64,000 nucleotides of DNA from Candidatus Curtissbacteria bacterium (GTDB taxonomy: Bacteria; Patescibacteriota; Microgenomatia; Curtissbacterales; GWA2-41-24), in NCBI GenBank assembly GCA_038326365.1, contig JBBQJY010000001.1, positions 12,128 through 76,127 of the forward strand. Reading direction: 5' to 3'. The translations under genes were made by a program, and so were the position numbers. Below, piece by piece: positions 1 through 30,883 of this stretch. Position 1 is the first letter of the stretch. Every line of letters begins with the position of its first letter. The notes below the pieces were generated by a model. It was not told where the DNA came from. It made no database searches and was given only the letters and a program-made list of their open reading frames with translations.

Positions 1-948
1 TTCAAAATCCAAATATCTGCAAATTATAAAAACAAAGATTGCGCACCAAAAAAAGACGAAGTTCACGGAAACAAAACCCAGCATAAAAAGAAAAGCCGAA
101 ATTAAGAGCCAAACAGGGGGTTGTATTTTGGCTCTAACAAACAAAAGAGCAAGCCCAACTCCAGTTATCGCAAACAAAATGTTAACTGGAAAGAATAACC
201 CCACCGGTTGCCATTCCTGAATATAGTCCAAGTTAGCAAATGTTGTGAAATCACGAGCTACCCCGGAATGCCATAGGGCAAACGGGAAAGGCGTCAGAAA
301 ACATCCTAAAAAACCTCCAGTCAAACAGAAAATTGGAAGGATTAAATCATTTTTGTCTCGCGATTTTTGGCCTAACCAATTGAGTAAAATATATAGGCCA
401 AAAACACCAAGCCCCACCAAAAAACCGCGATGAAAATTAGCCCAAAGAGCAAAAAAACAAAAATAGAAAAAAGGCTGAAATTTCTTGTTAAAAAAATTAA
501 TCTCCAACAGCAGTAAAAGCACTGCAAAAAAAACGAATGACACCATGTGTGGGCGAACAGACAAATTGGCACGAGACAGAACAATCGCGACAACAACAAA
601 AAAGGCTTTTAGCAAATTTAGCTCTTTGGTTAAAACCAAAAACGCCAGAGTTCCTAAGATTCCAAAAAGAACTACTAAGGCGAAAAAGCCAAAATATTTC
701 AAAACAACAGCAATAAAAATCTGATAAAAAAAATAAGAATTGCCCCAAATGTAACCCGGAATCGTCCAAGAAAATATGTCTGCTCGCAATATCCCCTGAC
801 CCTCTAAAAAATGGCTCCCGATAGCCTGGTGCCAACCAAAATCAGGGTCAATGGCAAAATGGGAAAGTATAAAAAGCCCAAACAAACATATAATTATATG
901 GAATTTAAAAGCCCAAATTGGCCGAAGTACCTTATTTTTTCTCAACAT
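1..948 (-). CDS. Polytopic membrane protein, probably a GT-C-fold glycosyltransferase. It is 5'-complete (ATG at 948) and runs off the window at position 1. The ORF track missed it because it has no in-window stop codon.
   Basis: I translated the minus strand from the ATG at 948 to position 1 by hand and found 316 codons with no stop. The product begins MLRKNKVLRPIWAFKFHIIICLFGLFILSHFAIDPDFGWHQAIGSHFLEGQ and is rich in hydrophobic Phe/Leu/Ile segments, with an acidic DPD motif in the first loop as in GT-C enzymes. The ORFs at 372..599 and 497..835 lie in other frames over the same DNA and are probably spurious. Confidence 0.55.
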   Translation of the reverse strand, partial: MLRKNKVLRPIWAFKFHIIICLFGLFILSHFAIDPDFGWHQAIGSHFLEGQGILRADIFSWTIPGYIWGNSYFFYQIFIAVVLKYFGFFALVVLFGILGTLAFLVLTKELNLLKAFFVVVAIVLSRANLSVRPHMVSFVFFAVLLLLLEINFFNKKFQPFFYFCFFALWANFHRGFLVGLGVFGLYILLNWLGQKSRDKNDLILPIFCLTGGFLGCFLTPFPFALWHSGVARDFTTFANLDYIQEWQPVGLFFPVNILFAITGVGLALLFVRAKIQPPVWLLISAFLFMLGFVSVNFVFFWCAIFVFIICRYLDFE

Positions 949-2584
949 TAAAAAGTGGTGATCTAATAGAAATGTAGCCCGGCGCCCTCAAGTTGAAAAT
1001 AGTTTTGAAGTCCCCACCCGCAACACCAATACTCCCCCGATTCGTTTCAAATGAAACGTTGGCTGTACTACCGTTGTCCGAATAACTAACAGATACTCCA
1101 GAAACAGACGTAACAGCCCCTCCCGCTTTTGAATCGGCTAGTCCGCGCAGTTCCTCAACCGAATATGGATTACCTCCCCAGCACGATGTCGTAGTCGGAG
1201 TAACTCGGGATCCGTCCACACCGTCTTTGCCCTGAACAAGCCAGGCGTTTAAAATATCAGCCATCTCAGCTCCCGTCAGCCAAGGATGAGATCTGCCGCA
1301 TTTTCCCGAAGAATTAGAATAGCTTTGGGTGTACCAAGATTTATAAAACCATGGAGATCCGGCAATTTTTTCCCAAGCACCGGCTGTCCAGCAACTTCTG
1401 CCTCCGCAATTTGTATCCCAACCACTCGTATTTAAATATCCACCACTCGTTGAAGCATATTGGGCCGAAAATGCGTGCCCTCCGTCTGTCAAAACAACTC
1501 CCTTAGTATCCCGAACTGCCTGCTCCCAAGCACCACCCTTACTGTGACCAATATAAACCTGGCAGGATTCAGTCGCACAAATTGATTTTGTACCGTTGTT
1601 TGTGTAAGAAAGTGCATAAGATCTTGCAGCTACAGCTTGCGCTTTTAACGCTTCGCTGTTCCAACTACCTGGCATTTCAGCAATACCATATAAATATTGT
1701 TGGAAATCAACAGATCCATATCCATCAACCGAAATATTTCCCGGTTCGCTAGAACCGCTTTGGACTTGCTTACCCGGATAATATTTATTCAAAATATCGT
1801 GATAATTTTGCCCAGAATCTGCTCTGGCTTTTGCCCCATATTGACTCATTCCATTTCTATGCGAATACGCACCAAAAGAAAACGCCGCAAAAGCTGGCGA
1901 AAAACCCGGGTTAAAAGCTGGCGAAGCATTTGAGTCATCCGCAAGTGGCACATCGCCCACCGATGTTGTAAAGGTTCCACCACTTTTTGCACTAACTATT
2001 TCCTGTTGGCGAACTGTGAGCGCCGCTATTTTGCCGGCAAGCTCACTTTGCAAGGATTTCGCCGAAGCAATTTCACCCTTCAAACCTTGCCTTTGCTTAT
2101 CTATTTGCCCCTGCGCAGAAGCCAATCTTTTTCGATCATCAGCCAGTTTGTTAATCTTTGCCGTAATCGATTCGATTAGATCCTTATCAGATCTACTTGT
2201 ACTCTGCTGAAAAGCAATCAGCTTTAGAGTGTCACGTGCGTCATCTGCCGAGAACAACGTCAGAAGCGGAATATCTACAAAGCTTCTTATGTAAAAGTTG
2301 CGCACCGTTGAAGACAAAATCAGTTTTTGAGATTGCAATTCACGTTCACTTTTGTCCAAATCTTGCCCAATCGATTTAATTTTCGTTGAAATTGAACTCA
2401 ATTGTCCCTCCAAATCTTTTACTTTACCCTCAAGTGGCGTTGTAGCTTTTTTAGATTCGTCAAGTTGATGAGACAAATCGTCAATTTGCTTTTGCAGGTC
2501 ACCAATGTCATCGGCCCGAATAGTTGTAAAAAAAACAAACAGTGGCAAAATAGCCAAGAAAAGAAGAAGCAGTAATTTCCTCAT
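932..2584 (-). CDS. Secreted SpoIID/LytB-domain protein with an N-terminal coiled-coil region (peptidoglycan remodelling)
   Basis: Signal-peptide-like N-terminus MRKLLLLLFLAILPLFVFF, then a coiled-coil stretch rich in Gln/Glu/Lys. The motif GAYSHRNGMSQYGAKA matches the SpoIID/LytB GxGMSQxGA signature. Confidence 0.6.
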   Translation of the reverse strand: MRKLLLLLFLAILPLFVFFTTIRADDIGDLQKQIDDLSHQLDESKKATTPLEGKVKDLEGQLSSISTKIKSIGQDLDKSERELQSQKLILSSTVRNFYIRSFVDIPLLTLFSADDARDTLKLIAFQQSTSRSDKDLIESITAKINKLADDRKRLASAQGQIDKQRQGLKGEIASAKSLQSELAGKIAALTVRQQEIVSAKSGGTFTTSVGDVPLADDSNASPAFNPGFSPAFAAFSFGAYSHRNGMSQYGAKARADSGQNYHDILNKYYPGKQVQSGSSEPGNISVDGYGSVDFQQYLYGIAEMPGSWNSEALKAQAVAARSYALSYTNNGTKSICATESCQVYIGHSKGGAWEQAVRDTKGVVLTDGGHAFSAQYASTSGGYLNTSGWDTNCGGRSCWTAGAWEKIAGSPWFYKSWYTQSYSNSSGKCGRSHPWLTGAEMADILNAWLVQGKDGVDGSRVTPTTTSCWGGNPYSVEELRGLADSKAGGAVTSVSGVSVSYSDNGSTANVSFETNRGSIGVAGGDFKTIFNLRAPGYISIRSPLFNVEKK

Positions 2585-2709: not shown

Positions 2710-3780
2710 GTGCATTTGACTACCCAAAATCTGCTTAAATTCTCATTTCTTGTTTCAGCTCTTTTTCTACTGAGCACAAAGCTCACATTTGCAACAGTGC
2801 CTTCGGTTGTGACACCGACAACGATCGATGAAAATACCGACCACGCGACTGTCCAATTTAGCGGCCTTAGCCCCAACACTGATTACGAATACTGTGGCGC
2901 CGACTCGCCTTCAACCTGCAATGCTAGGAAAAAAACCATCAAATCCGATAGCTCAGGAACAGTAATCATAGACAATCTGTGCGCGGCCGGAGAACACCTG
3001 CTTGAGCCAAAAAGTGGAGGTTGCGACTCGGGCGACTTCTTTTGGGGAGACAGAACTTACGCAATTAAACTATACACATCTTGGCCAAATGAAATCGGCA
3101 ATGCGTCATTCAAAGTAAAACGGGTTATACCTAGTTTCGATATTACTTCAGATAACGGCTTCAAACCGGGCTCAGCTATAACTGCAAAAGTAAAAGGTAG
3201 CAGAAGGCCGATTGATAGCCCTGACAGAAACGCTTACTTGTTAGAAATTACTGGCAGTCCAAACCCTAGCAATAATTCACTTAAGATTTTTGAGCTGAAT
3301 AACTCAGAAGGAGATTACACTTTTAGCACCCTTTCCATAGCTAGCGGAGACTACACAATATCTTTAACCGGCCAAAATCATGGTTCGGAAGACGGCTTTG
3401 ATTTTGGGAAGATAGGCTTCAAAATAGATACTGCTGGCGGTGGGATAACCAGCGGCAGTGGCCCAACCTCTGGCAGCAACGCAGGCGTTGGTTCCAATCC
3501 CTGTGGCACCACTTGCCCCACAGCCCTAGGCGACCTGCCTCTCAATTTTCAAGAACTCGTCAATACCAAAATCTTACCAGCGGCTATCGGCATGGCCGGC
3601 GGTATTGCCCTAATTCTTATGGTCATTGGCTCAATCAGGATGCTTATGTCCCAAGGCGACCAACAAAAGTTAAACGGCGGTCGAGAAATGTTTGTTGCTG
3701 CTCTGGCGGGTTTGCTTTTCCTAATCTTTTCGACTCTCATTCTCAGGTTTATCGGCATTAATATTATCGGTATAAAATGA
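2710..3780 (+). CDS. T4SS pilin-like protein (VirB2/TrbC-like C-terminal two-TM hairpin) with a roughly 250-aa N-terminal secreted domain
   Basis: Signal peptide, then a C-terminus ILPAAIGMAGGIALILMVIGSIRMLMSQGDQQKLNGGREMFVAALAGLLFLIF that shares the TM-[ST]xGD-x-K-x(3)-AR-x-TM motif of the five downstream paralogs. Confidence 0.5.
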   Translation: MHLTTQNLLKFSFLVSALFLLSTKLTFATVPSVVTPTTIDENTDHATVQFSGLSPNTDYEYCGADSPSTCNARKKTIKSDSSGTVIIDNLCAAGEHLLEPKSGGCDSGDFFWGDRTYAIKLYTSWPNEIGNASFKVKRVIPSFDITSDNGFKPGSAITAKVKGSRRPIDSPDRNAYLLEITGSPNPSNNSLKIFELNNSEGDYTFSTLSIASGDYTISLTGQNHGSEDGFDFGKIGFKIDTAGGGITSGSGPTSGSNAGVGSNPCGTTCPTALGDLPLNFQELVNTKILPAAIGMAGGIALILMVIGSIRMLMSQGDQQKLNGGREMFVAALAGLLFLIFSTLILRFIGINIIGIK

Positions 3781-4457
3781 AAAAACTCTTTATTTTTTTA
3801 TTGGCTTTTGTAGCTTTCCTTCAATTTTCTAATGCGAACATCGCTCATGCCCAAACAGGCTGCCCTGCCCCAGGCTGGACTATCAGAATTCTCAACGCTT
3901 CAGGAAATGATGTAGATGTAGACTTTAGCGGCAAGCCAGCTGGCCACTTAAGCGTTGTGCATATCAGTGGATTTAAGGGTAATTATGACCTACCAATACC
4001 CGATGGCGCTCTCGATATTCATTTCCATGGGATAGATGACATTTACGCAGCAACTATGGTCTTTGCAGGCTGCAATATTTCGAATACTACTAGCTTTACC
4101 ATGCCTCCCGGTGGTGCTGGCCTACCCGGTGGTGGAGGCGGCAAGGCAACCCAATGCGGCTCGTTCGATGCATGTACATCAGGCGGTTTGGCCCCATCAG
4201 GTTTTTCAACCCAAAGCTTTATTACTCAACTCATCACCAAAATTCTTCCAATCGTCATCGGCGTTGGTGGATTCCTGGCAATCATTATGATACTTATTTC
4301 GGCAACACAATTTATAACCTCAAGCGGCAATCCAGAAGCGGCAGCAAGCGCCCGCGGCCGCCTCATTTTTGCAATTGTCGGCTTTGCACTCTTGATCTTG
4401 GCCTTTGCCATAACCAAAGTCATAGACCAAATATTTCTCAAAAGTGGAGCCATTTAA
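3777..4457 (+). CDS. T4SS pilin-like protein (VirB2/TrbC-like) with an N-terminal extracellular domain
   Basis: Signal peptide and C-terminus LISATQFITSSGNPEAAASARGRLIFAIVGFALLILAFAI. The start overlaps the upstream stop by 4 nt (ATGA). Confidence 0.5.
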   Translation: MKKLFIFLLAFVAFLQFSNANIAHAQTGCPAPGWTIRILNASGNDVDVDFSGKPAGHLSVVHISGFKGNYDLPIPDGALDIHFHGIDDIYAATMVFAGCNISNTTSFTMPPGGAGLPGGGGGKATQCGSFDACTSGGLAPSGFSTQSFITQLITKILPIVIGVGGFLAIIMILISATQFITSSGNPEAAASARGRLIFAIVGFALLILAFAITKVIDQIFLKSGAI

Positions 4458-4465
4458 GAAAGAAC

Positions 4466-4792
4466 ATGTACATTCCCCATCTTGACGCTTATGCCGATTT
4501 CGACCTTGCCAGCCAATTCTCTCCTGCCGGAATACCCGGCCTTACAAGTTTAGGCGCACTGGCAACAATCATCGTTAAATTCTTAATTTCCATAGTCGGA
4601 ATTCTAGCTATTATTTTTATAATTATCGCCGGCATAAAAATAGTCAGCTCCGGCGGAGACTCCAAAAAATTAGACGGTGCTCGCGCAACTCTTACCTATG
4701 CTATTATTGGACTAGTTGTGGCAATTCTTGCGTTTGTAATCGTCAATATTGTGCAGAAATTCCTAGGCTCGACTGTCGCCATAACCTCATGA
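4466..4792 (+). CDS. T4SS pilin-like protein (VirB2/TrbC family), about 109 aa
   Basis: The ATG at 4466 follows the upstream stop at 4455-4457. The motif is IIAGIKIVSSGGDSKKLDGARATLTYAIIGLVVAILAF. The long N-terminal extension in the 4154 ORF has no protein-like character and overlaps the upstream gene. Confidence 0.55.
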   Translation: MYIPHLDAYADFDLASQFSPAGIPGLTSLGALATIIVKFLISIVGILAIIFIIIAGIKIVSSGGDSKKLDGARATLTYAIIGLVVAILAFVIVNIVQKFLGSTVAITS

Positions 4793-5130
4793 GACTCGCA
4801 GCTGGTATAGGCACAATCACTGCCCCGCCCGAACTTGCAAAAGCTAATCCTGTGGACCCGCAAGCATATGTTGCCGGTTTTGTCAGGAACGGCATCAGCC
4901 TACTTTTAATTGTTGCTTTCATCCTTTCTTTTCTATTTACAATTATCGCCGGCATCAAGTTTGTAACCTCCGGAGGTGACGAAAAGGCTGTTTCTAGTGC
5001 CTGGTCTTCAATTTATTACGGCTTTATTGGGATGCTTATTGTAATCGGGTCATACGCTATTATAAGATTAATTGAGACCTTTTTTGGTGTTAGTATAATA
5101 TCAAGCGGTTTTCAACTGCCCACACCATAA
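4789..5130 (+). CDS. T4SS pilin-like protein (VirB2/TrbC family)
   Basis: Motif TIIAGIKFVTSGGDEKAVSSAWSSIYYGFIGMLIVIGSYAII. There is a 4-nt overlap with the upstream gene. Confidence 0.55.
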   Translation: MRLAAGIGTITAPPELAKANPVDPQAYVAGFVRNGISLLLIVAFILSFLFTIIAGIKFVTSGGDEKAVSSAWSSIYYGFIGMLIVIGSYAIIRLIETFFGVSIISSGFQLPTP

Positions 5131-5160
5131 AGTGCAAAAACAAAGGGGGTGAAACAAAAT

Positions 5161-5568
5161 ATGTTTGCGAAAATCAAAAAATTAGCCATACCATCAGTGG
5201 GTCTAGGTTTGCTACTATCAGCACCCGGATCCATCTTTGCGCAAGCAATTGGCGGAGGCGGAGCACTAGTTCCTACCGAAATTGCCCCAATTAATGACAT
5301 TGTCCAAGTAATTAGAAATGCTATCAGATTCATTTTGCTGATCGCTTTTGTCTTGGCATTTATATTCTTAATTATCGGCGGTATTCGCTGGATAACAGCT
5401 GGAGGAGACGAAAAAGCAGTCTCAAGCGCTCGCGGTATGATAACAGCAGCACTTATCGGATTAGTCGTAGTTCTAGTTTCATATGCACTCATCGTACTTG
5501 TCGAAACATTCTTTGGTGTCCATATTATCTCTGGCCCAATCACTATTCCGCAGGTTACTGATAAATAA
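5161..5568 (+). CDS. T4SS pilin-like protein (VirB2/TrbC family) with a signal peptide
   Basis: ATG at 5161 preceded by aaggggg. Signal peptide ends LLLSAPGSIFAQA, then LIIGGIRWITAGGDEKAVSSARGMITAALIGLVVVLVSYALIVL. Confidence 0.55.
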   Translation: MFAKIKKLAIPSVGLGLLLSAPGSIFAQAIGGGGALVPTEIAPINDIVQVIRNAIRFILLIAFVLAFIFLIIGGIRWITAGGDEKAVSSARGMITAALIGLVVVLVSYALIVLVETFFGVHIISGPITIPQVTDK

Positions 5569-5599
5569 AGCAGGGCTCATCACGGCTCAGTTAGCAGTT

Positions 5600-5911
5600 A
5601 TGCTAACTGCTCAAGCTATGGTCAGTCCTGCTTATGCGGCGCCACCAACTATCCACGACATCCAGACGATTTTTCAAAACATCATTGGGCTGCTCGCCCC
5701 TGCAACAGCGGTTGCCTTTTTAATAATGCTAATAGTTGGCGGCTTTAAATTTTTAACCTCCGGCGGTGACCCAAAAGCAGTAGGCAGTGCCCGCAGTACA
5801 ATGACTTACGCTATTCTCGGAGTTATCCTGGTTGTTGCCTCTTGGTTAATCCTAGTTCTTGTAAAAGAAATCACAGGCTACGACGTCACCACGTTCAAAT
5901 TGCCTTTCTAA
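5600..5911 (+). CDS. T4SS pilin-like protein (VirB2/TrbC family) with a signal peptide
   Basis: ATG at 5600 lies downstream of the previous stop at 5568. Signal-like MLTAQAMVSPAYAAPP, then LIVGGFKFLTSGGDPKAVGSARSTMTYAILGVILVVASWLIL. The 5483 start would overlap the upstream gene by 86 nt. Confidence 0.5.
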   Translation: MLTAQAMVSPAYAAPPTIHDIQTIFQNIIGLLAPATAVAFLIMLIVGGFKFLTSGGDPKAVGSARSTMTYAILGVILVVASWLILVLVKEITGYDVTTFKLPF

Positions 5912-5956: not shown

Positions 5957-8900
5957 ATGCCTGTCCACAAGGACGTACTGTCCAAAGCAAAAAGGCCCAA
6001 GTCAAAGCCATGGCTAGGTATCATATTCATCGCTTTGCTCATATCCATCAACCTCTCAATTTTTACCTCAGCAGTACAAGCCGCTCCTGGAGGCGCCCCT
6101 GCTCCCCAACCCTGTTTTAACCCTGAACCCGTCTACGTTAAAGACGCAGGCGGTAATTTTGTTCTCGACGCCAACGGCCAAAAAGTAGAAAACCTTACGG
6201 ACAACTATTTAACGGACACCAATGGTGACCCTCTCGGACCGGAAGAAACAGACAATAAACTTACTAATCCTGAAGCACTCAAGTTCACAATTGTCTATAC
6301 AGGTCATAAAGGAGATCTTGTTCACTTAACAAAAAGAAATCAAGTTAAAGTCGATTTTTCCAAGCTTCAGGCAATTTTTGGCGCCCCCAACTCTAACTTT
6401 GCAGATGGCGGCGCTCAAAGCATCGACCATGCCCAAACAAACTTAATGGGTCTTAAAAATCCTCTCATATACCAGGGCCCGGCACAAAAAGCAGTATTCA
6501 AAGTGCTGACCGATGCTCAACGCATAAAATACGTTAAATACGTTTATGACAAACCCGAACTTGGAGAATCTGGCACAAAGTTTACAGATTACAACGGCCA
6601 AGATCCTAAAAACATTCACGAATTAGTGGGTGCATTTTCCCTACCCAGCCCACCTCCAGCCGGCACCACAGACCAGCATTGGCTGGATACTTGGGCAAAG
6701 TATTGGGAAAAACTACCCACTACGTACAACGAATTTACAATTGGTAAATTGGAGTTTCGAGAGCTACATGGCCTCCAATTAATCGAAAACGTCAAGAAAG
6801 GAGTCGACAATTCCTGCAGCAAATTTAATCCACTAAGAACTGTCGAATTTCCCGTACCCAACTTTTTTCGGACAGCCGCAACTTCAGGCGCACTAAACCA
6901 AGTTCTTGTCCCCAAAACCGCCCAAAGCGACCAGAATGATCTCTTGGACATCAAAGGTGCAGTTCTCGGTGTTAAAACTTCTACCTTGGATTTTTTACAG
7001 TATTGCATCAAATTTGCCCAAAAAAACCCTGTCTCCCAGGCCATCAAAAAAGTTATTAGCTTAGGAACCCAATCTATCAAAAGTTCTTATATTGCTTATG
7101 CGGCTTGGAACCTCAATTTGGCCAGCGTTGGTTCAAATTCAGCCCGCTTCACTTTCGACCCACCAGGCAACGGCAATTTTGGACTTGTTGCCAAAAACAA
7201 TAGTACAGGTCAAACATGGGACAGTGGTGCAATCTCAAATGGTACGTCGAGTGTCACCTTTAATGGCCTCACCCCCGGCAATTATCGCGCTGTGCTTATA
7301 TTTGCTACCTCCGAAATAAGCAATGCAGTCACTTTCGATATCAACTCGGCCGATCCTTCTCCTCAGCCAACATCAAGCTGGACACTTAGCGTTCAAGCCT
7401 CTCCCATTAGGGGTTCAAACGTCCGGTTTGACTACAATCCTGAAGCCAATAGCGTCATGGCGCTCATCGTCTATGACCAAAACAACAACACCGTTACCGA
7501 TTCAGGCTCAATAGACCGCAGCACAACTTGGACTTGGACAAATGCCAGACCAGGTGTTTACCACGCCCAATTATTCGCTTACGGTATCGCACCTGTTTCC
7601 AATGTTGTCAATTTTGAAGTCCAATGGCTCTTAAATAACCCCACTGTCGACATTAGACCGCTGGCCGGAATAAACAACGTCAACTTCACTTTTGCCCCCC
7701 AGGGCAACAACGACGGCGCCAATCTCTCTCTTTTAACTTATGTCAATACAACTCCCCGAGGCACTGCCTTTTATGACAGCGCCGTCTCTGGCGTAAATCT
7801 AAATGGTCAAACCTCCCATGCATTGCCTCTTAACAAAGTTCGCTGGGGAAAATGGGTGGCGGTCCTCATTAAAGGCTTAAGTGCAGTTTCCAATGAAGTT
7901 ACTTACGAAGTTCCCTACGTTTTAGAAGTAGAAAACAACTCGGGCTCCGTAACATTCCATTACGGACCCCCACTCCATATTGGCCCTCCTTCGGCAAATG
8001 CCATGGCCATTATTGTCAAAAGAAAATATATCGACAAAGTCGTCTGGGACAGCGGACCCCTAGCTCTTGATTCAACCTCTGTCCACTGGACCGATAACGC
8101 CCAACCCGGAGACATGGAAGCTTGTCTTCTTTACGATGGCAAGACCGAGCTCAGCGCCCACAATTTAGTTTGCAAGCCCATCAGCGTTTCCACCAATTAC
8201 CCCTGGAAAATTATTACTCTGGACAAAGACAAATCTTGCATAAAGGTTTCCGGCTCCGGCAAAGCAGGCAACGCTCCATTCTGCGCCATCTACCCAACTA
8301 AATTTGAACCCTCCGTCAAAGGCCAAACAAACGTTTTCCCGGGCGAATGTGCCGACCCTAACCCTAGCCGCTATAAACTAAACGACCAATCCAATGTCGT
8401 TTGCACATTCACTTTCGACTGGGACTCTTCAAAATTCGACGGTATTCCGGACAAAGAACTGCGTCTTCCCGCTTCCGGCCCCGGCAATTGGGACAAATGC
8501 GATTATGCGGGTGATTTCGTCACTTGCTATTTAACTGTCGGAATCTGGCCCGATTTTAGGGTTCCATTCTTAGCACAATCTTGGAACAACACTCAATTTT
8601 CAAATAAAGATGAGGTCTTGCCCACCCTTCAAGAAACAGGCCGTCCCGGCTATTACACATTTGGTCAACCAAAAGCTGTGGCCGAATATGATCCGCTGCA
8701 AGAGCTGGTCAACAACTGTGACCCGGCAATTCCCGGTTCCCAAGCCTGCAAGGACTTGGTCAATAAAGTCACCAGTGGTGATTACCCAACCAAATATCCA
8801 GGTCTTAGCGATTGTGTAACCAGTTACCTTATGCAATTACCCCAATTAGTTACCTGCATTAAAGGTGTCGCCAGCCTTATCCCCAAAAACCTGCCAGGTC

Positions 8901-9577
8901 AAGTCGATTCATCAACGCTGGGTGCAAGCACCGGACCAAGTGGATCTGTCCTAGGCACGGCTACAGACCAAAAAGAGCGTTTTATTGGTGCTGTGGACTG
9001 TGGTAAACATCTCACCCGCGATATTTCTCTCAAGCCCCTAGTCCTGCAAAAAGAATTAGGAGTTAAATTTGATTGCGACCTGTCAACATCAAGCGAAACA
9101 CCTCCCAATGGAGCACCCCCTCCTCCACCAGGAGGCGGTACGCCGACGCCGACGCCACCACCTCCTCCACCAGGAGGCGGTACGCCGCCAACTACAAATG
9201 ATTGTTCAGGGAAATATAACCTAAGCACAAACCCGCTTAACGACAATTTCGGCGACCCTTCTTGTGATTTTTCCGAAAGCCAACTTTATGATCTTCTCAG
9301 ATCTCTTGATCCAAGCCGTGCAGACTATTGGTTCTTTACCATAGTCCCTTGCGAAAGTGTTTATAACTCAAACAATTACAACGGGGCTTCTACTAGTGGC
9401 TCAGCATGGGGTCTATATCAAATGGGTCACGAAGCCTATCCGACGCTTGGAATCCCACGACAAATGAACTCCCCTTTCGATCGCGGTGATGTCGATTGGC
9501 GTCTGCAAACCAGCAATGCCGTAAACTATAATAATGGCCTGGGTAATACCTTTGACTACTGGGGTTGCGCAACATGA
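5957..9577 (+). CDS. Large membrane-anchored surface protein with a C-terminal lytic transglycosylase (SLT/VirB1-like) domain after a proline-rich linker
   Basis: N-terminal TM segment, then a roughly 1000-aa extracellular region rich in Thr/Ser/Asn. The linker is PPNGAPPPPPGGGTPTPTPPPPPPGGGTPP. The C-terminus CESVYNSNNYNGASTSGSAWGLYQMGHEAY matches the SLT catalytic E-S ... GLMQ pattern. Confidence 0.65.
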   Translation: MPVHKDVLSKAKRPKSKPWLGIIFIALLISINLSIFTSAVQAAPGGAPAPQPCFNPEPVYVKDAGGNFVLDANGQKVENLTDNYLTDTNGDPLGPEETDNKLTNPEALKFTIVYTGHKGDLVHLTKRNQVKVDFSKLQAIFGAPNSNFADGGAQSIDHAQTNLMGLKNPLIYQGPAQKAVFKVLTDAQRIKYVKYVYDKPELGESGTKFTDYNGQDPKNIHELVGAFSLPSPPPAGTTDQHWLDTWAKYWEKLPTTYNEFTIGKLEFRELHGLQLIENVKKGVDNSCSKFNPLRTVEFPVPNFFRTAATSGALNQVLVPKTAQSDQNDLLDIKGAVLGVKTSTLDFLQYCIKFAQKNPVSQAIKKVISLGTQSIKSSYIAYAAWNLNLASVGSNSARFTFDPPGNGNFGLVAKNNSTGQTWDSGAISNGTSSVTFNGLTPGNYRAVLIFATSEISNAVTFDINSADPSPQPTSSWTLSVQASPIRGSNVRFDYNPEANSVMALIVYDQNNNTVTDSGSIDRSTTWTWTNARPGVYHAQLFAYGIAPVSNVVNFEVQWLLNNPTVDIRPLAGINNVNFTFAPQGNNDGANLSLLTYVNTTPRGTAFYDSAVSGVNLNGQTSHALPLNKVRWGKWVAVLIKGLSAVSNEVTYEVPYVLEVENNSGSVTFHYGPPLHIGPPSANAMAIIVKRKYIDKVVWDSGPLALDSTSVHWTDNAQPGDMEACLLYDGKTELSAHNLVCKPISVSTNYPWKIITLDKDKSCIKVSGSGKAGNAPFCAIYPTKFEPSVKGQTNVFPGECADPNPSRYKLNDQSNVVCTFTFDWDSSKFDGIPDKELRLPASGPGNWDKCDYAGDFVTCYLTVGIWPDFRVPFLAQSWNNTQFSNKDEVLPTLQETGRPGYYTFGQPKAVAEYDPLQELVNNCDPAIPGSQACKDLVNKVTSGDYPTKYPGLSDCVTSYLMQLPQLVTCIKGVASLIPKNLPGQVDSSTLGASTGPSGSVLGTATDQKERFIGAVDCGKHLTRDISLKPLVLQKELGVKFDCDLSTSSETPPNGAPPPPPGGGTPTPTPPPPPPGGGTPPTTNDCSGKYNLSTNPLNDNFGDPSCDFSESQLYDLLRSLDPSRADYWFFTIVPCESVYNSNNYNGASTSGSAWGLYQMGHEAYPTLGIPRQMNSPFDRGDVDWRLQTSNAVNYNNGLGNTFDYWGCAT
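9119..9187 (+). repeat. Perfect 27-nt direct repeat (cctcctccaccaggaggcggtacgccg) occurring twice with a 15-nt spacer, encoding a PPPGGGTP linker repeat
   Basis: The two identical copies at 9119-9145 and 9161-9187 are read directly from the sequence. Confidence 0.8.
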
Positions 9578-12164: not shown

Positions 12165-12217
12165 ACCTGCCTTGACTATCGCCTAAATTGTCCCTAATAT
12201 TGATTTAGAGTTTGTCC

Positions 12218-13993
12218 ATGCTTTCTGCCACAAAAATAAAACTGTTGGTTGTTTTACCATTTCTACTTCTTGGCCTCTTTTTTCAACCCAAAATTGCATC
12301 TGCTCAAAGTTACGGTTGGACAATATCGGTTGCTAATGTTTCTGGTACTTCAATTACCTATAATATTACGCCAAACTCCGGTAGCGGATCGGTACTTGTA
12401 TTAACAGACCTTCCATTGGGCGATCCCAACAGAGAATGTACTATTCCACCAAACGTATCCTCATTCACCTGCACTCACCCCGCGGGGACTCATTCGGTCG
12501 AAGTTACATATCTTGGCACTAAACAATCAGCAAACATCTCAGTAACAACTGGAGGAAGTGGTGGTGGTGGAGGAGGAGGAGGTGGAGGTGGAGGTGGACT
12601 CGCTAGCTGTGCTGCTCCGAATCCCGACACAACATCCCGCCAAGCACATGACCTCGTCCTTAAATGCGGTATAGCCAACGGCAGCATGGATAACCTTTAT
12701 TTCACCTTCAGTGAAACAGCCGGCATTCTGGACAGTCTTCAAGTCCTGGTCATGGGCAGTTCTCAACTTCACGAAGAATCAAACAAAGTCACCCAAAACA
12801 CTGGTGCTCTTGCAGGAGCCGCAACACTTGTTGCATCACTCTATAGCCACCCTCCGGCGTCTGGGGTTGAATATTTAGCCGGTGAATTCCAAAAGTTTAA
12901 CCCAACAAAAGACGCTTATGCCCAAACAGGAATCGGCTACGACACACTTCAACCTGTTCAAACCATTTGGGAACTTTTCAGAAACATTTCCTACCTCGGC
13001 TTCGTTATCGTTTTTGTTGTCATTGGTTTTATGATTATGTTCCGAGCACACATATCCCCCCAAGCAGTAGCTACGGTTCAAGATTCATTACCCAGGATCG
13101 TTATCGCACTTGTTCTCGTTACATTCAGTTACGCCATCGCCGGCTTAATGATCGATCTCATGTTCTTGTTTCTGAACGTCATTCTGGGTCTTCTGCCAGT
13201 AACTGACGCATCAAACATTGTCTTCAAAAAAAGTGTTTTCGGCGTCATAACTAGCTCTTGGAAAGACACTTTTGGAACTGTTTTTCATAATGTTCAAGAT
13301 CTTCTCAGTGAGATCATCAAGACTAAATTCTTTGTGGATAAAATTCTTGCCTTCTTCGGGGGCGGTATTGCAGCCCTCGTCGTCGGTATTGCCATGTTTT
13401 TCATAATGTTTAAGGTTTTCCTAATGCTATTAACTGCTTACGTTTCCATTATCCTCTTAACAATCGCAGCTCCATTCTTCTTCCTCTTGCAAGCTTTACC
13501 CGGTAACAACAATGGCATGACTTGGTTTAAACAAATGCTAGCAAATGTGGCCGTTTTCCCAACGGTTGCCATCATGTTCATTCTGGCTGGCTATCTCGGT
13601 GGCATTACGGCACTTGGTGGTAACGACAGTAACCCAGCAATCGGCCAGTCGAGCGGTAACATTGCAAAATTCCCTTTGCTTGCAGGCGATCTGGACCCTA
13701 AAGTTTTGGGGCATCTGGCAGGTATTGGCATTCTACTCATGACGCCAGCCGCGGCTCAACTCGTTAAGGACGCACTCGGTGTCAAGGCTGTAGGGGGCGG
13801 CGCAGCAGGCGCAGCAGCAGCTGGGGCTCTAGGCGCAGGCGCAGCAGTTGCGGGAGCTCCATTTAGGCCAATTCAAGGTGGCTTTGGCAAGGCTACGTCG
13901 GACTATGCTTCAAAAGGACTCTCAACAACAGGCAGGGCAGGGTTTAATAAAGTCAAAGGGGTATTAGGAAGAGGTCCCGGAGGTGATACCTAA
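12218..13993 (+). CDS. Polytopic membrane protein, candidate VirB6/TrbL-like T4SS channel component, with an N-terminal secreted domain, a polyglycine linker and a Gly/Ala-rich tail
   Basis: Signal peptide MLSATKIKLLVVLPFLLLGLFFQPKIASAQS, a GGSGGGGGGGGGGGGGG linker, then at least five hydrophobic helices. It sits next to the pilin, hydrolase and VirB4 genes. I did not recognise a VirB6 signature directly, so this call is by context and topology. Confidence 0.4.
   Translation: MLSATKIKLLVVLPFLLLGLFFQPKIASAQSYGWTISVANVSGTSITYNITPNSGSGSVLVLTDLPLGDPNRECTIPPNVSSFTCTHPAGTHSVEVTYLGTKQSANISVTTGGSGGGGGGGGGGGGGLASCAAPNPDTTSRQAHDLVLKCGIANGSMDNLYFTFSETAGILDSLQVLVMGSSQLHEESNKVTQNTGALAGAATLVASLYSHPPASGVEYLAGEFQKFNPTKDAYAQTGIGYDTLQPVQTIWELFRNISYLGFVIVFVVIGFMIMFRAHISPQAVATVQDSLPRIVIALVLVTFSYAIAGLMIDLMFLFLNVILGLLPVTDASNIVFKKSVFGVITSSWKDTFGTVFHNVQDLLSEIIKTKFFVDKILAFFGGGIAALVVGIAMFFIMFKVFLMLLTAYVSIILLTIAAPFFFLLQALPGNNNGMTWFKQMLANVAVFPTVAIMFILAGYLGGITALGGNDSNPAIGQSSGNIAKFPLLAGDLDPKVLGHLAGIGILLMTPAAAQLVKDALGVKAVGGGAAGAAAAGALGAGAAVAGAPFRPIQGGFGKATSDYASKGLSTTGRAGFNKVKGVLGRGPGGDT
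12553..12600 (+). repeat. Simple (GGN)n repeat encoding a 16-residue polyglycine run
   Basis: ggaggaagtggtggtggtggaggaggaggaggtggaggtggaggtgga, read directly. Confidence 0.75.
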
Positions 13994-18590: not shown

Positions 18591-20420
18591 TTATGCAGAA
18601 AACTTAGCCTCTGCTTCTTGCGCTTTTTTGCGCATCTCCAGAAGCTCTTCCGGGTTTGTTGTGACTAATGAGTGCTCCTCAGGTGAAGCAATTACTCGAA
18701 TCGCCACGTGATTTGGCCCGGCAAAAAATATTCCTTCTCCAACGTCTGCCGCCAAAAGCAAATGCCGCTCTCCTTCAGTCAGATAAAAAACGTCAGTCAG
18801 TTTATCAATAGCAGCCGGCGATTGCTTCATCAGTATCTGAATTGACGAGTTAGTAACAATAGCCTTCCCGTAGTCGGTTTCCAAAAAGTCTTCGACGTCC
18901 TGAGAAATTGTTGTCAGGCCTAGGTAATATTTTCTTGCCCGCTTGGCAATGGAGTACATAAACGTTGCGCTGTCCGGATGCTGCATCATATACCAAGCCT
19001 CGTCCACAATTAATATTCTCTTCCTGATGTCATTTTTAATGCGCGTCCAGATAAAGTCTAAAATTAGATATATGGCAATAGGTCGCAAAGATTCTTCCAT
19101 GTTTTTAATTGAAAAAACAGTAAAAGTATTCCTAATGTCTAAGTTTGAATGCTGGTTAAAAATACCGATTAAGGACCCCTTAACGAACTTCTCGAGCCGG
19201 TCCGCAAGTCCCTTGGCTGCTTCTTCCTCCATCCCCAAAAAAGCTTTATAAAGGTCTTCCATCAGCGGTGGCTCATTTTTCTGACTAGCCGGCTCCGGCG
19301 TTATTCCTTTAGCTTTATAAGTTGCAACCAGAGCCCTGTCTAAAATTGCGTCCTCAGTCGGCGTCATCGCACCCATTATCACTTTAAAAAATCCGTGCAG
19401 TGAAAGTATTTTGAGCCCCAATTCGTTTTCACCCTCTTCGTATACTCCCGAAAGGTCAAATGGATTAATCTTCACCTGGCTATCAAAATCAAAAGAAATG
19501 TATTCCCCGCCAATTGCCTCACAAAGATTTTTGTATTCTTCCTCCGGGTCAATGACAATTATTTCTGTTCCGAACATCAAAGACCTCAAGGCTTCCAGCT
19601 TAACCATGTAAGATTTTCCGGCACCGGACTTCGCAAAAATTACCGAATTAGCATTTTCTTGAGTAAACCGATCAAAAATTACCAGCGACCCGTTGTGTTC
19701 GTTAATCCCATACATAATGCCTGTGCTGGAAGTTAAGGACGAAGAAATAAATGGGAATGTTGTCGCCAAGCTAGTCGTATCCATATTTCTGGTGATATAT
19801 AGGTGGTCTGTCGCCTGTGGCAACGTAGTTTTAAACGCTTCTTCCATTTGCAACGAAGCGTGTTTGGGAACCAAAAGCAGTGCTCCCATTGTCGACTCCA
19901 CTTGCTTACAAATTGTATTTAACTCTTCCAATGTTTCGGCCGGAACTGAAACATAAAGCCCGAATTGGAAAAAACGCTCAGAACCTTTTACCAACTCTTC
20001 CTGTAAAACTTGCGCATCCTCCAAAGCCGCCGAAACGGTCGGATCAATTACGTGGCCATGCTGAATATCAGAAGCAATCGTCGCCTCCATTTCCGTAATT
20101 TTGCGCTTCAAGTCATCAAGCACACCTTTGGCCTCAACCGGATACTGATACATGGATATTTCCAATGTGTGTTCGAAGTTAATAAGCGGCGAGAGCCAAT
20201 TAGCCTGCACATATCGAGGATAACCAACTACGAATAGTGTCCGCCAATAAGTCGATCCGATTTTGATGTAGTCGAAATCAATCTCAATGGCCGGCGGCGC
20301 AATAATGTCTTTGACTGAGACCACTCCTCGAGCCAAAGTACTAGCCCATTGTTGCTCTTTTGCAGTCAAACCCAAATCGGCATTTTTTTCCTTTTTCCCA
20401 AAGATATTAATTATATTCAT
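18591..20420 (-). CDS. virB4: VirB4/TrbE/ConE-family T4SS ATPase
   Basis: Walker A SVIFAKSGAGKSYMV and the VirB4-type Walker B RILIVDEAWYMM. The N-terminus DYIKIGSTYWRTLFVVGYPR is typical of Gram-positive-type VirB4. Length is 609 aa. Confidence 0.8.
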   Translation of the reverse strand: MNIINIFGKKEKNADLGLTAKEQQWASTLARGVVSVKDIIAPPAIEIDFDYIKIGSTYWRTLFVVGYPRYVQANWLSPLINFEHTLEISMYQYPVEAKGVLDDLKRKITEMEATIASDIQHGHVIDPTVSAALEDAQVLQEELVKGSERFFQFGLYVSVPAETLEELNTICKQVESTMGALLLVPKHASLQMEEAFKTTLPQATDHLYITRNMDTTSLATTFPFISSSLTSSTGIMYGINEHNGSLVIFDRFTQENANSVIFAKSGAGKSYMVKLEALRSLMFGTEIIVIDPEEEYKNLCEAIGGEYISFDFDSQVKINPFDLSGVYEEGENELGLKILSLHGFFKVIMGAMTPTEDAILDRALVATYKAKGITPEPASQKNEPPLMEDLYKAFLGMEEEAAKGLADRLEKFVKGSLIGIFNQHSNLDIRNTFTVFSIKNMEESLRPIAIYLILDFIWTRIKNDIRKRILIVDEAWYMMQHPDSATFMYSIAKRARKYYLGLTTISQDVEDFLETDYGKAIVTNSSIQILMKQSPAAIDKLTDVFYLTEGERHLLLAADVGEGIFFAGPNHVAIRVIASPEEHSLVTTNPEELLEMRKKAQEAEAKFSA

Positions 20421-30681: not shown

Positions 30682-30883
30682 AATAACTCGCTCTGCATTT
30701 TTTATTTATAGTGGTCTGTTTAAGTCAAACGTTCGCACTTGTAGATACGAACCTACATGTAGCGATTACGCCCAACAAGCCCTAATAAAATATGGCCTTG
30801 TAACCGGCGCGACCAAATCAATTGTCAGGCTCCTGAGCTGTCAACCATTTTCAAAAAGAGCAATAATTGACCCCCTAATTTAA
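30632..30883 (+). CDS. yidD: Membrane protein insertion efficiency factor YidD
   Basis: IWKKFYQ...CRYEPTCSDYAQQALIKYGLVTGATKSIVRLLSCQPF matches the YidD family. Confidence 0.7.
   Translation: MKFKKIWKKFYQKLTIKITRSAFFIYSGLFKSNVRTCRYEPTCSDYAQQALIKYGLVTGATKSIVRLLSCQPFSKRAIIDPLI

Follow-up and report, generated by a model that had tools for sequence, protein, structure and literature searches.

The window analysed here, 64 kb in all, comes from Candidatus Curtissbacteria, an ultra-small groundwater-type bacterium. Reading the open reading frames of the sequence, we found six consecutive genes on the + strand within 2710-5911, numbered g1 to g6 by their positions in the array: g1 (2710..3780, 356 aa), g2 (3777..4457, 226 aa), g3 (4466..4792, 108 aa), g4 (4789..5130, 113 aa), g5 (5161..5568, 135 aa) and g6 (5483..5911 as the maximal ORF). 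The true starts differ from those of the longest ORFs: g3 begins at 4466, not 4154, and g5 at 5161, downstream of a GGGGG Shine-Dalgarno sequence that is the best such match of the array. The start candidates of g6 are ATG 5483, GTG 5516, ATA 5561 and ATG 5600, and its mature N-terminus was placed at 5639 by a conserved SPxYA|A cleavage motif (SPAYA in g6; the leaders of its orthologs end in SP[AV]YA), which gives a predicted mature protein of 90 aa. A preliminary description had the genes translationally coupled through 4-nt overlaps, which is right for g1/g2 and g3/g4 (ATGA) but for only these two of the five junctions. The spacing at g2/g3 is an 8-nt gap, at g4/g5 a 30-nt gap, and at g5/g6 a 31-nt gap or an overlap, according to the g6 start chosen. 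An intergenic gap always precedes position 5, and a promoter-like site upstream of g5 was not conserved among relatives.

The C-terminus of every g1-g6 protein contains two segments of strong hydrophobicity (means over 19 residues of 1.8-3.2 on the Kyte-Doolittle scale), parted by a short polar loop of the pattern G-D/N...K...R. The common TM-loop-TM hairpin ending described earlier was recovered in all six proteins, but the literal motif proposed for it, [ST]xGD-x-K-x(3)-AR, in none of them, and the very example given for that motif reads K-x(4)-AR, not K-x(3)-AR. The departures are GR in g1, GN without K in g2, AW in g4 and an initial A in g5. When relaxed to [STA]xG[DN]-x(1,2)-[KEQ]-x(3,5)-[AG][RW], the motif has just six matches when every reading frame of the 64 kb is counted, and each gene holds one of them. 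An alignment of g1-g6 has only two invariant columns, identity of the paralogs to g1 is 20-27%, and mean paralog identity within 13 genomes is 29%; the G-D...K...R loop chemistry is kept at all six positions in the same genomes. At the DNA level the best likeness between paralogs is a 60-nt core of 60-75% identity, and no long DNA repeats were found between the six.

The large N-terminal extracellular domains noted earlier on two of the pilins are borne out: about 250 aa in g1 and about 100-120 aa in g2, each after a signal peptide. In g1, a signal peptide of about 28 aa (res 1-28, 2710-2793) is followed by two beta-sandwich domains (res ~29-250, 2794-3459), a Gly/Ser linker with the Cys loop NPCxxxC (res 251-279, 3460-3546) and the helical pilin hairpin (res 280-352, 3547-3765). 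The AF2 model of g1 (pLDDT 84) has both beta-sandwich domains above 90, a disordered linker and then the helical hairpin, and Foldseek matches of the ectodomain are Ig/FN3-like (E ~1e-5). In g2, the order is a signal peptide of about 25 aa (res 1-25), the ectodomain, a poly-Gly linker, the Cys loop C127-x5-C133 and the pilin module (res 149-216, 4221-4424). The six Cys of g1 and the four of g2 are all extracellular. The protein encoded by g3 carries an acidic N-tail of about 35 aa before its hairpin, and g5 a signal peptide (res 1-27, cut after IFA) before a hairpin of H39-79 / H84-118 (AF2 pLDDT ~90). Classical signal peptides were found in g1, g2 and g5 themselves and in the orthologs of g6, and are absent from g3 and g4. 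The proposed topology of a leader followed by a two-TM hairpin thus describes g1, g2, g5 and probably g6, but not g3 and g4, which have the hairpin and no classical leader.

Pilin family membership and the surrounding T4SS locus

Searches with the Pfam families T4SS_pilin (PF18895, gathering threshold 26.6 bits) and TrbC (PF04956, 27.9 bits) gave significant pilin matches. PF18895 scored above its threshold for g2 (36.0 bits), g3 (31.3), g5 (29.9) and g6 (38.0), and below it for g1 (17.8) and g4 (17.6); g6 also narrowly passes TrbC (28.3 bits). Among 39 sequences of positions 3-6 (the four of the window and their orthologs), PF18895 matches 36 and TrbC 11. For a lineage profile, only orthologs of positions 3-6 in other genomes were used. 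Of the window's 609 stop-to-stop frames with 40 aa or more, it recovered exactly the g1-g6 frames and no others, with 38 bits (E 4e-11) for g1 and 65 bits for g2, neither of which is in the profile. Through this profile and their own orthologs, g1 and g4 are clear pilin relatives. Fold searches with the module were non-specific, and a specific structural likeness to VirB2/TrbC was not obtained. Taken with the adjoining T4SS genes and the AlphaFold hairpin models, the Pfam and lineage-profile matches uphold the earlier reading of the six as VirB2/TrbC-like T4SS pilin paralogs, and we hold with high confidence that g1-g6 are paralogous members of the T4SS_pilin / VirB2-TrbC superfamily in a T4SS locus.

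On the - strand, transcribed divergently from the array, lies a gene for a SpoIID-domain protein (932..2584, 550 aa, N-terminal coiled coil; PF08486, 71.7 bits), which is syntenic in nearly all related loci; the orthologs directly upstream of arrays are 52-79% identical. Directly 3' of the array, a + strand gene (5957..9577) encodes a secreted or membrane-anchored protein of 1206 aa with one N-terminal hydrophobic segment and no match in Pfam or NCBIfam; counterparts of 394-1601 aa occur in most related loci. Further on, also on the array strand, a polytopic membrane protein (12212..13993, 593 aa) shows a signal peptide, a beta-rich domain, a poly-Gly run and about 5-6 TM segments, and is conserved in synteny at 51-56% identity. 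It is a candidate VirB6-like platform, an assignment that we infer, since Pfam/NCBIfam profile searches gave it no family match.

A VirB4-type T4SS ATPase is encoded at 18591..20420 (- strand, 609 aa), with 99.9 bits to the TraG P-loop family PF19044 and 378 bits to NCBIfam conju_CD1110 (cutoff 325). Next to it, at higher coordinates, are encoded a TrsD-like protein (20430..21527, -, 365 aa), which resembles the N-terminal part of VirB4 and matches NF041427 TrsD weakly (29.8 bits, E 4.8e-7; cutoff 200), and a PrgI (VirB3-like) family membrane protein (21527..23101, -, 524 aa; PF12666, 34.1 vs 27 bits) with a C-terminal CarboxypepD_reg-like domain. A membrane protein with an M23 peptidase domain (23364..25931, +, 855 aa; PF01551, 32.8 bits; hydrophobic region at res 257-427) is a candidate cell-wall hydrolase of the T4SS. 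All four genes lie within 20 kb, and dnaN and dnaA lie at 27.3-30.0 kb. No relaxase or VirD4 domains were found among the ORFs scanned, in agreement with the published Patescibacteria pattern. We read the region as the block of pilin genes in a chromosomal T4SS of the Gram-positive (MPF-FATA-like) type, located close to the replication origin.

Positional orthology and the variable ectodomain

A detailed position-by-position comparison was carried out on 13 genomes with six modules each. The nearest neighbour of every module was in the same position (78/78), with module identities of 57-74% within positions and 17-42% across them, and the six positions have one-to-one orthologs in unchanged order. 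The arrangement SpoIID | 1-2-3-4-5-6 | large protein was seen in about 20 loci, with a set size fixed at six, or seven where position 1 is duplicated; in other lineages a single protein may unite 2 to 8 or more pilin modules by fusion. By this sequence comparison, the six pilins are shown to form an ancient, ordered, non-redundant set that is one-to-one across the lineage.

Position 5 is the most conserved (74% in the 13 genomes), and its best 120 homologs are all 110-156 aa, none reaching 200 aa. The best 120 homologs of position 1 all carry an extension (195-443 aa) and fall into at least 33 BLAST-unrelated groups. Among g1 orthologs, of which 34 full-length ones were aligned, the ectodomain is 27% identical vs 69% for the hairpin. 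Even in the closest genome pair, whose positions 3-6 are 89-94% identical, similarity at position 1 begins exactly at G-x-NPC, with none detectable before it. Length also varies in g2 homologs (128 to 358 aa, module 60-66% identical) and in g3 orthologs (99-112 aa in 13 aligned genomes, about 341-348 aa in the L020, L021, L026 lineage). The g4 orthogroup is 58% identical across genomes with the loop W conserved, and in some members a complete signal peptide is present or the protein reaches 234 aa. The variable part is thus the position-1 ectodomain, and sometimes the ectodomains of positions 2-4, while the paralog set is constant. Judged from these alignments, the ectodomain behaves as an exchangeable cassette, with the conserved G-x-NPC Cys loop as its point of attachment. 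An adhesin or tip role of the N-terminal extensions is plausible, and the outer domain of position 1 may bind the host cell.

A proposed heteromeric pilus and its alternatives

To the best explanation as a whole, a T4SS pilin-gene block whose products would build a heteromeric pilus, we give a probability of roughly 60%. The proteins would insert in the membrane with both termini outside and the loop cytoplasmic, for g3 and g4 an assumed topology since they have no classical signal peptide. They would be extracted by a VirB4-powered machine on a VirB6-like platform, possibly the 593-aa protein (12212-13993), and join in a single heteromeric structure outside the cell, a tube or short pilus that crosses the envelope towards a host bacterium. 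Every conjugative pilus solved so far has the pilin loop facing the lumen and both termini on the outside, so the ectodomains of positions 1 and 2 would project from the pilus surface, position 1 presenting its pair of Ig/FN3-like domains at the end of a flexible Gly/Ser linker, as host-binding, tip-like elements of low copy number. Position 5, always short, most conserved and with the best ribosome-binding site, would form the bulk of the shaft, perhaps with position 6, and positions 3 and 4 would be adaptors. Major and minor pilins, as suggested earlier, are compatible with the data; the heteromeric-pilus model with this particular assignment of roles is tentative and falls somewhat short of even odds. 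Counting against the model are the sub-threshold Pfam scores of g1 and g4, the missing leaders of g3 and g4, the poor conservation of the promoter-like site before g5, the VirB6 identity of a protein with no family match, and the fused proteins, which are awkward for a polymer built one subunit at a time.

The hairpins might instead be membrane-resident T4SS parts or two-helix anchors, with g1 and g2 as anchored surface adhesins and no tube at all, a reading that we consider unlikely but take seriously. No pilus has been seen so far in any Patescibacteria T4SS, the literature mentions one as a possibility only, and we infer here its formation by the g1-g6 proteins as well as its assembly, stoichiometry and order. 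The missing leaders of g3 and g4, the non-specific fold searches and the polyproteins, which resemble polytopic membrane proteins, point the same way. Against this stand the sequence homology to TrbC/VirB2 and T4SS_pilin, the strict co-location of the array with the T4SS, and the G-D...K...R loop kept at all six positions, as expected for one shared lattice. Moreover, mutagenesis, labelling and modelling favour a pilus-like assembly of PrgF in a Gram-positive-type system, and with the anchor left in the membrane, some 20 aa of Gly/Ser linker would probably be too short to bring an adhesin beyond the cell wall.

A heteromeric pilus was also weighed against a repertoire of interchangeable major pilins, one or few used at once, for antigenic or host-range variation, as has been proposed for the TrwL copies of Bartonella Trw and the VirB2 paralogs of Anaplasma. 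The low identity between paralogs would suit such a repertoire, and the literature offers this reading for Patescibacteria arrays. However, each position has its own conserved signature, all genomes contain an ortholog of it, and the order is unchanged, without lineage-specific amplification; this one-to-one orthology argues for six non-redundant subunits and, together with the fixed set size and the lack of long DNA repeats able to drive gene conversion, makes the antigenic variation by paralogs suggested in the preliminary description improbable. The pilin series of Southlakia epibionticum, taken as a whole, is also reported essential. An identity as (pseudo)pilins of type IV pili, T2SS or competence systems, which typically encode their major and minor pilins in tandem, was rejected on sequence features, although type IV pili do exist in Patescibacteria. 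The class III prepilin motif (G|F/M-x-x-x-E), searched in g1-g4 and read directly from the sequence in g5 and g6, is present in 0/6, the hydrophobic module is a C-terminal hairpin and not a single N-terminal helix, and the only Pfam matches are T4SS_pilin and TrbC, which leaves this identity a negligible chance.

Comparison with known systems

With the conjugative pilins VirB2/TrbC/TraA of Gram-negative T4SSs (PF04956), the six proteins have in common a small hairpin of two helices around a short charged loop, leaders that are cleaved off in several members, and VirB4 in the same locus. Those systems, however, usually have one pilin gene each and no fused ectodomains, and their outer-membrane complex and VirB5 tip protein are absent here. 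Another parallel is PrgF of pCF10, a VirB2-like protein in a Gram-positive-type T4SS (ter Beek et al., bioRxiv 2025). [quoted passage not shown] That survey covered 50-150 aa proteins only, and in the 16 plasmids inspected, namely those with several candidates, just one per plasmid was judged pilus-forming, whereas the present locus has six conserved paralogs, with extended forms of 226-356 aa. The Mbov_0395 pilin-like protein of Mycoplasma ICEs, from a monoderm MPF-FATA-type system, is weakly similar to g6 (NF045849, 26.7 bits, E 3.4e-6) and g5 (15.8 bits); both scores are below the cutoff of 40, so neither protein is a member of that family.

Tandem VirB2 paralogs in host-interaction T4SSs also occur in Bartonella Trw (multiple TrwL) and Anaplasma phagocytophilum. 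They are described as lineage-specific amplifications for variation, in contrast to the ancient ordered orthogroups without recombination-prone repeats at this locus. The minor (pseudo)pilins that accompany the major one in T2SS and type IV pili (GspH-I-J-K beside GspG) make up a fixed group of about five distinct tandem paralogs, in which one large-domain member caps the fibre tip and one abundant subunit forms the shaft. This is an analogy only and not homology, the fold and the targeting signal being unrelated.

Closest in kind are the tandem VirB2-like pilin arrays already published from Patescibacteria (Wang 2023; Quinonero-Coronel 2025). These are the 'Sec-secreted array' of VirB2-like pilins in Nanosynbacter lyticus TM7x, the essential series in the T4SS cluster of S. 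epibionticum ML1, which likewise numbers six genes, and 441 arrays with 2-11 genes each from 383 assemblies, Microgenomatia and Saccharimonadia being the richest in them. The present array resembles them in its tandem PF18895/TrbC-like genes of about 25% paralog identity, its adjoining MPF-FATA-like virB4 with PrgI and TrsD, its lack of a relaxase and its place near dnaA. The main texts on those arrays are silent on positional orthology of the paralogs and on pilins with large N-terminal ectodomains, and what they propose is antigenic or host-range versatility through the paralogs; at this locus it is the ectodomain that varies, in a fixed set. What the present locus adds is a fixed, ordered six-member set with a position-1 ectodomain that differs completely between close relatives.

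Gene boundaries and family membership of the six pilin paralogs

The preliminary description had taken the six tandem + strand genes at 2710-5911 (g1 to g6) for VirB2/TrbC-like pilin paralogs, and Pfam and lineage-profile searches showed that they are real paralogs correctly assigned to the T4SS_pilin family. The gathering threshold of PF18895 (T4SS_pilin, 26.6 bits) was passed by g2 (36.0 bits), g3 (31.3), g5 (29.9) and g6 (38.0), and missed by g1 (17.8) and g4 (17.6). When the orthogroups of the six genes across genomes were designated positions 1 to 6, 36 of 39 sequences from positions 3-6 (the four of the window plus orthologs) matched PF18895 at E <= 1e-3, and 11 of the 39 matched TrbC (PF04956, gathering score 27.9 bits) at the same cutoff. 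Within the array only g6 reaches the TrbC score, as a 142-aa ORF (28.3 bits); its 103-aa form gives 24.5 bits. A lineage profile built from position 3-6 orthologs of other genomes, with neither g1 nor g2 in it, recovered both, with 65 bits for g2 and 38 bits for g1 (E 4e-11); all its matches in the window were to the array. Position-1 orthologs score 20-26 bits against PF18895, and the g4 orthogroup is 42% identical to position 5. Judged from these comparisons, g1 and g4 are homologous modules despite their sub-threshold Pfam scores. An assignment to the (pseudo)pilins of type IV pili or the T2SS was rejected, since the class III prepilin motif (G|F/M-x-x-x-E) is present in none of the six products (tested in g1-g4, read straight from the sequences in g5 and g6) and the module is a C-terminal hairpin.

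All six products carry two strongly hydrophobic C-terminal segments separated by a loop of ~12 residues containing D/E and K/R (SQGDQQKLNGGR, SSGNPEAAASAR, SGGDSKKLDGAR, SGGDEKAVSSAW, AGGDEKAVSSAR and SGGDPKAVGSAR). The loop pattern first proposed, [ST]xGD-x-K-x(3)-AR, literally matches none of the six genes because the actual spacing is K-x4-AR; a relaxed pattern gave exactly six matches in all six frames of the 64 kb, one per gene.

The first gene, g1 (2710-3780, +), encodes 356 aa from a GTG start. The annotation of P0001, the identical protein at NCBI, leaves out the first 33 residues (2710-2808) and with them the signal peptide, giving 323 aa. The 356-aa form is also called on a Logan contig, and its start aligns with those of 33 orthologs. 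The gene is followed on the same strand by g2 (3777-4457, 226 aa), g3 (4466-4792, 108 aa), g4 (4789-5130, 113 aa) and g5 (5161-5568, 135 aa), the last with an ATG 10 nt downstream of AAAGGGGG. For g3, the longest ORF, starting at 4154, overlaps g2 in a different frame and was discarded. The sixth gene ends at 5911, with candidate starts at 5483, 5516, 5561 and 5600. The 4-nt ATGA overlaps previously described throughout the array exist only at g1/g2 and g3/g4; the remaining three junctions are gaps of 8 nt, 30 nt and, only if g6 starts at 5600, 31 nt.

Leaders were judged heuristically by an n-h-c pattern and an AxA-like site. By this heuristic g1, g2 and g5 have classical leaders, with predicted cleavage after TFA, AHA and IFA, respectively, and g3 and g4 have none. 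In g6 orthologs the start immediately follows the g5 stop, and the leader is 20-25 aa long and terminates in SP[AV]YA; at that starting place the window has no ATG, GTG or TTG. An ATA at 5561 would give a good leader of 26 aa, a normal signal peptide length, and the ATG at 5600 one of only 13 aa; the GTG at 5516 and the ATG at 5483 overlap g5 by 53-86 nt. The mature N-terminus of g6 should lie at the predicted 5639.

Proteins of positions 3 and 4 mostly begin with a very short M..(V/A)YA or M..LA stretch (4466-4500 and 4789-4810 in the window), found at the same positions in L005, L009 and L012-L016, related loci of other genomes. The stretch resembles the end of a signal peptide minus its hydrophobic core, and the position-4 orthologs of two further loci, L008 and L011, carry the signal peptide in full, with the same LA at its end. 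The short start may be what is left of a leader, or else be recognised by a different peptidase. At the other end, positions 4, 5 and 6 share a conserved extracellular tail after helix 2 (FFGV.IISG...IP / ITG.DVTT...P), located in the window at 5040-5130, 5480-5568 and 5860-5911. Since VirB2 and TrbC are processed at the C-terminus, this shared tail may be a processing site.

Genomic surroundings of the array

The window is chromosomal and lies close to the replication origin. The origin-proximal genes dnaN (27281-28426) and dnaA (28641-29972) are present with yidC nearby (30883-31719), as are other housekeeping genes; no tRNA genes were found in the window and no mobile-element signal around the array. 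A VirB4 is encoded at 18591-20420 (PF19044, 99.9 bits; NCBIfam CD1110 family, 378 bits against a cutoff of 325), followed by a weakly matching TrsD-like protein (20430-21527), a PrgI/VirB3-like protein (21527-23101) and an M23-peptidase membrane protein (23364-25931). These genes belong to a monoderm-type T4SS around the array; no relaxase or VirD4 domain was detected in the ORFs scanned.

Downstream of the pilin genes, on the array strand, lie the genes of a secreted protein of 1206 aa, of three smaller proteins and of a polytopic membrane protein of 593 aa. The 1206-aa protein (5957-9577, +) is secreted or anchored, has Pro-rich PPPPPGGG linkers, and follows the array in most related loci at lengths of 394-1601 aa. 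Its C-terminal ES...GLYQM...YNNG motifs look similar to those of lytic transglycosylases; no Pfam or NCBIfam match was obtained, even at E 10. The 593-aa protein (12212-13993, +) has a beta-rich N-terminal domain behind a signal peptide, then 13 consecutive Gly and ~5-6 TM segments, and is kept in synteny at 51-56% identity; its topology suggests a candidate VirB6-like protein. This layout of domain, linker and membrane part resembles that of g1 and g2. Homology between its N-terminal domain and the g2 ectodomain (the N-terminal extracellular extension), both of which start GWTI..., was dismissed at a BLAST E of 4.9.

Divergent from the array, a SpoIID-domain protein (932-2584, -) with a signal anchor and a coiled coil lies directly upstream of it, as in nearly all related loci (52-79% identity). 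Since it belongs to the peptidoglycan-remodelling enzymes, it could open the cell wall for the T4SS, as an analogue of VirB1. In the locus L027, SpoIID and the array are separated by an inserted MazE/PIN toxin-antitoxin pair (L027:7033-7703), and a gene with Avd / 23S_rRNA_IVP domains directly follows the sixth pilin gene (L027:10811-11182). Diversity-generating retroelements use Avd as an accessory protein.

Named homologs and related loci almost all come from Candidatus Curtissbacteria (Microgenomates group, Patescibacteria). Seven related loci (L004, L014, L018, L019 and L023-L025) are titled 'uncultured Gammaproteobacteria' or 'Pseudomonadales' and hold Curtissbacteria-type pilin loci in the same synteny; the taxonomic labels of these metagenome-assembled genomes are probably wrong.

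Positional conservation, ectodomains and poly-pilins

The array was compared with 22 related genome loci and four contigs, and in ~20 loci the order of SpoIID (-), six pilin genes, large protein and, further on, the 593-aa membrane protein is retained. When the last 88 residues of 78 proteins from 13 genomes were aligned, identity within positions 1 to 6 was 69, 57, 60, 58, 74 and 62%, respectively, against 17-42% across positions, and the nearest neighbour was at the same position for every one of the 78 proteins. Paralogs in the window are 20-27% identical to g1, and within the 13 genomes paralog identity averages 29% (range 13-53%). Each position has a distinct loop signature, such as SSGNPEAAAAAR at position 2 and the W at position 4. 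Complete arrays consist of six genes, with seven in one lineage through a duplicated position 1; what looks like a fusion of positions 3 and 4 in L017 is spurious, caused by a run of N. No DNA repeats able to drive gene conversion among the paralogs were found beyond a 60-nt core of 60-75% identity. The array is thus an ancient and fixed complement of non-redundant subunits rather than a variation repertoire. Antigenic variation, which had been suggested to explain the paralog diversity, is contradicted by the one-to-one positional orthologs and the lack of long shared DNA, and a variation-type VirB2 array made of recent interchangeable amplifications was rejected on the same evidence.

The positions differ in their N-terminal extensions. 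The best 120 homologs of position 1 are all long (195-443 aa, and up to 512 aa in the loci), and lengths at position 2 span 109-849 aa. At positions 3 and 4 most proteins have ~100-115 aa, with maxima of ~348 and ~246 aa, and positions 5 and 6 are always short, with none of the best 120 position-5 homologs reaching 200 aa. The two large N-terminal domains of g1 and g2 had no match in the rest of the window. In the AF2 model of g1 (mean pLDDT 84), a leader helix is followed by two beta-sandwich domains (pLDDT >90), a disordered Gly/Ser linker, a small Cys-loop hairpin and the helical hairpin (H280-316 / H321-352). A fold search with this model indicated that the ectodomains resemble tandem FN3/Ig-like domains (E ~1e-5), with matches to transglutaminase C-terminal barrels, FNIII pairs, Bap and RbmA.

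Across genomes, the N-terminal regions of position 1 fall into at least 33 groups unrelated by BLAST, joined to a module that is ~69% identical throughout. Most of these ectodomains belong to no Pfam family, and some contain a dockerin-like segment. In the closest genome pair, L014 and L015, positions 3-6 are 89-94% identical and the position-1 proteins have 363 and 235 aa; their similarity begins exactly at a G-x-NPC Cys loop and continues at 77% to the end, with no similarity upstream of the loop. On these alignments, the position-1 ectodomain is a swappable cassette.

Position 5 is the most conserved of the six (74%). An intergenic gap of 20-120 nt always precedes it, and its Shine-Dalgarno match is the best of all (~4.2/6, against roughly 2.5-3.5 at the other positions); both the gap and the stronger match before g5 are conserved across loci. 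The AlphaFold model of g5 is a long helical hairpin (H39-79 / H84-118) with a pLDDT of ~90 in the hairpin. A sigma-70-like site (TTGAGA-16-TATAAT, 11/12) at 5072-5099 (+), in the 3' end of g4 and 62 nt before g5, was considered as an internal promoter and set aside; it is absent from 11 other loci and may therefore be due to chance.

Run exhaustively, a profile search with the g5 family returned 37,734 representatives at E <= 1e-3. Among the best 150 of these, 84 have two or more pilin modules in one polypeptide, and ten have six. Such poly-pilins (for example P0276, P0278, P0288 and P0411, and the locus L028:1777-3435) contain 2-8 modules by domain count, joined by linkers of ~25 aa without internal leaders; in P0411 (1775 aa) the search tool counted up to 16 stretches. 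P0276 (552 aa) consists of a signal peptide and then six hairpins with ~25-aa linkers, and its gene lies in an array of pilin genes with single modules. Poly-pilin modules show no ordered correspondence to positions 1-6; poly-pilins were therefore rejected as a fused set of six and are independent internal duplications. They show that the module tolerates covalent concatenation in an N-out/C-out topology. The literature compared makes no mention of poly-pilin fusions, which any assembly model has to account for.

Proposed assembly model and comparison with known systems

We propose that the six pilins would insert N-out/C-out, be extracted by the VirB4 machine and assemble together as a single heteromeric tube or short pilus. 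The shaft would consist of position 5 and perhaps also position 6, positions 3 and 4 would be adaptors, and positions 1 and 2 would be low-copy distal subunits whose outward ectodomains bind the host; both pilus formation and these subunit roles are what we infer. By a rough estimate from F-pilus dimensions, a ~27-kDa ectodomain on each subunit would be too large for the tight lattice of known conjugative pili, which favours a tip-like or sparse position for position 1. A 2025 preprint, which establishes PrgF of pCF10 as an essential VirB2-like protein of a Gram-positive T4SS, also restates that all solved pili have a lumen-lining loop and both termini outward.

Instead of a homopolymeric pilus, the array may specify a fixed, ordered conduit of six VirB2-like proteins, with a modular, receptor-binding first subunit that is cassette-swapped and determines host range; we hold this reading tentatively, at a probability of about 0.3. 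Under it, cassettes may be exchanged at the G-x-NPC Cys loop even among close relatives, the position-1 ectodomain would be comparable, by analogy, to the tip of a phage tail fibre, and fused poly-pilins would be covalent versions of the same idea. In the main rival reading, which we think unlikely, the hairpins would serve as membrane anchors and there would be no filament. When PDB sequences were searched with a profile of the pilin alignment, only designed helical proteins (E >= 0.025) and no solved pilin appeared, and conjugative pilins did not stand out among solved structures in either fold or sequence searches; the family assignment is therefore based on sequence profiles and gene context.

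A large fraction of all uncultivated bacteria are Patescibacteria, whose cells live attached to those of a host. In the one Patescibacteria species tested, the T4SS and its pilin series are essential for the host-attached lifestyle. The comparison of loci offers concrete features to test: the fixed six-member set of non-redundant pilins, position 5 as the candidate shaft subunit, and position 1 as the candidate host-recognition subunit, with an ectodomain wholly different between close relatives. If this is correct, the position-1 ectodomain could become a means of predicting or engineering host range, and the set of six provides a defined input for multimer modelling and cryo-ET.

A pilin array was first noted in TM7x in 2018, and a 2025 review describes six divergent VirB2-like pilins in Southlakia epibionticum. 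Using PF04956 and PF18895 on 3,035 Patescibacteria genomes, Quinonero-Coronel et al. (2025, PMC12102498) reported 383 assemblies with a total of 441 VirB2 arrays, each defined as 2-11 pilin genes in tandem or split by one non-pilin gene; the arrays came above all from Microgenomatia and Saccharimonadia. Paralog identity in these arrays averages 25% (maximum 54%), and they lie near an MPF-FATA-related virB4, usually without a relaxase and often near dnaA. The present array fits them in its six adjacent low-identity genes, CD1110-family VirB4, nearby dnaA, lack of a relaxase in the scanned ORFs and Patescibacteria host. This kind of array is thus already published, by Wang et al. (2023) as well, and the locus adds no new kind of system. 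Useful and testable refinements are the ordered set of six and the swappable position-1 ectodomain, on both of which the literature compared is silent.

Within the literature compared, g1-type proteins would have no precedent among T4SS pilins in carrying fused ectodomains. The minor-pilin tip complex of the T2SS and type IV pili is the closest functional analogy to the proposed distal subunits, and the array would by that analogy be its first T4SS counterpart; the likeness is one of analogy only, because the defining prepilin motif is absent from the array. The VirB2 arrays of Bartonella Trw and Anaplasma are described as composed of recent, lineage-specific and interchangeable paralogs, whereas the six pilins of Curtissbacteria are one-to-one positional orthologs.
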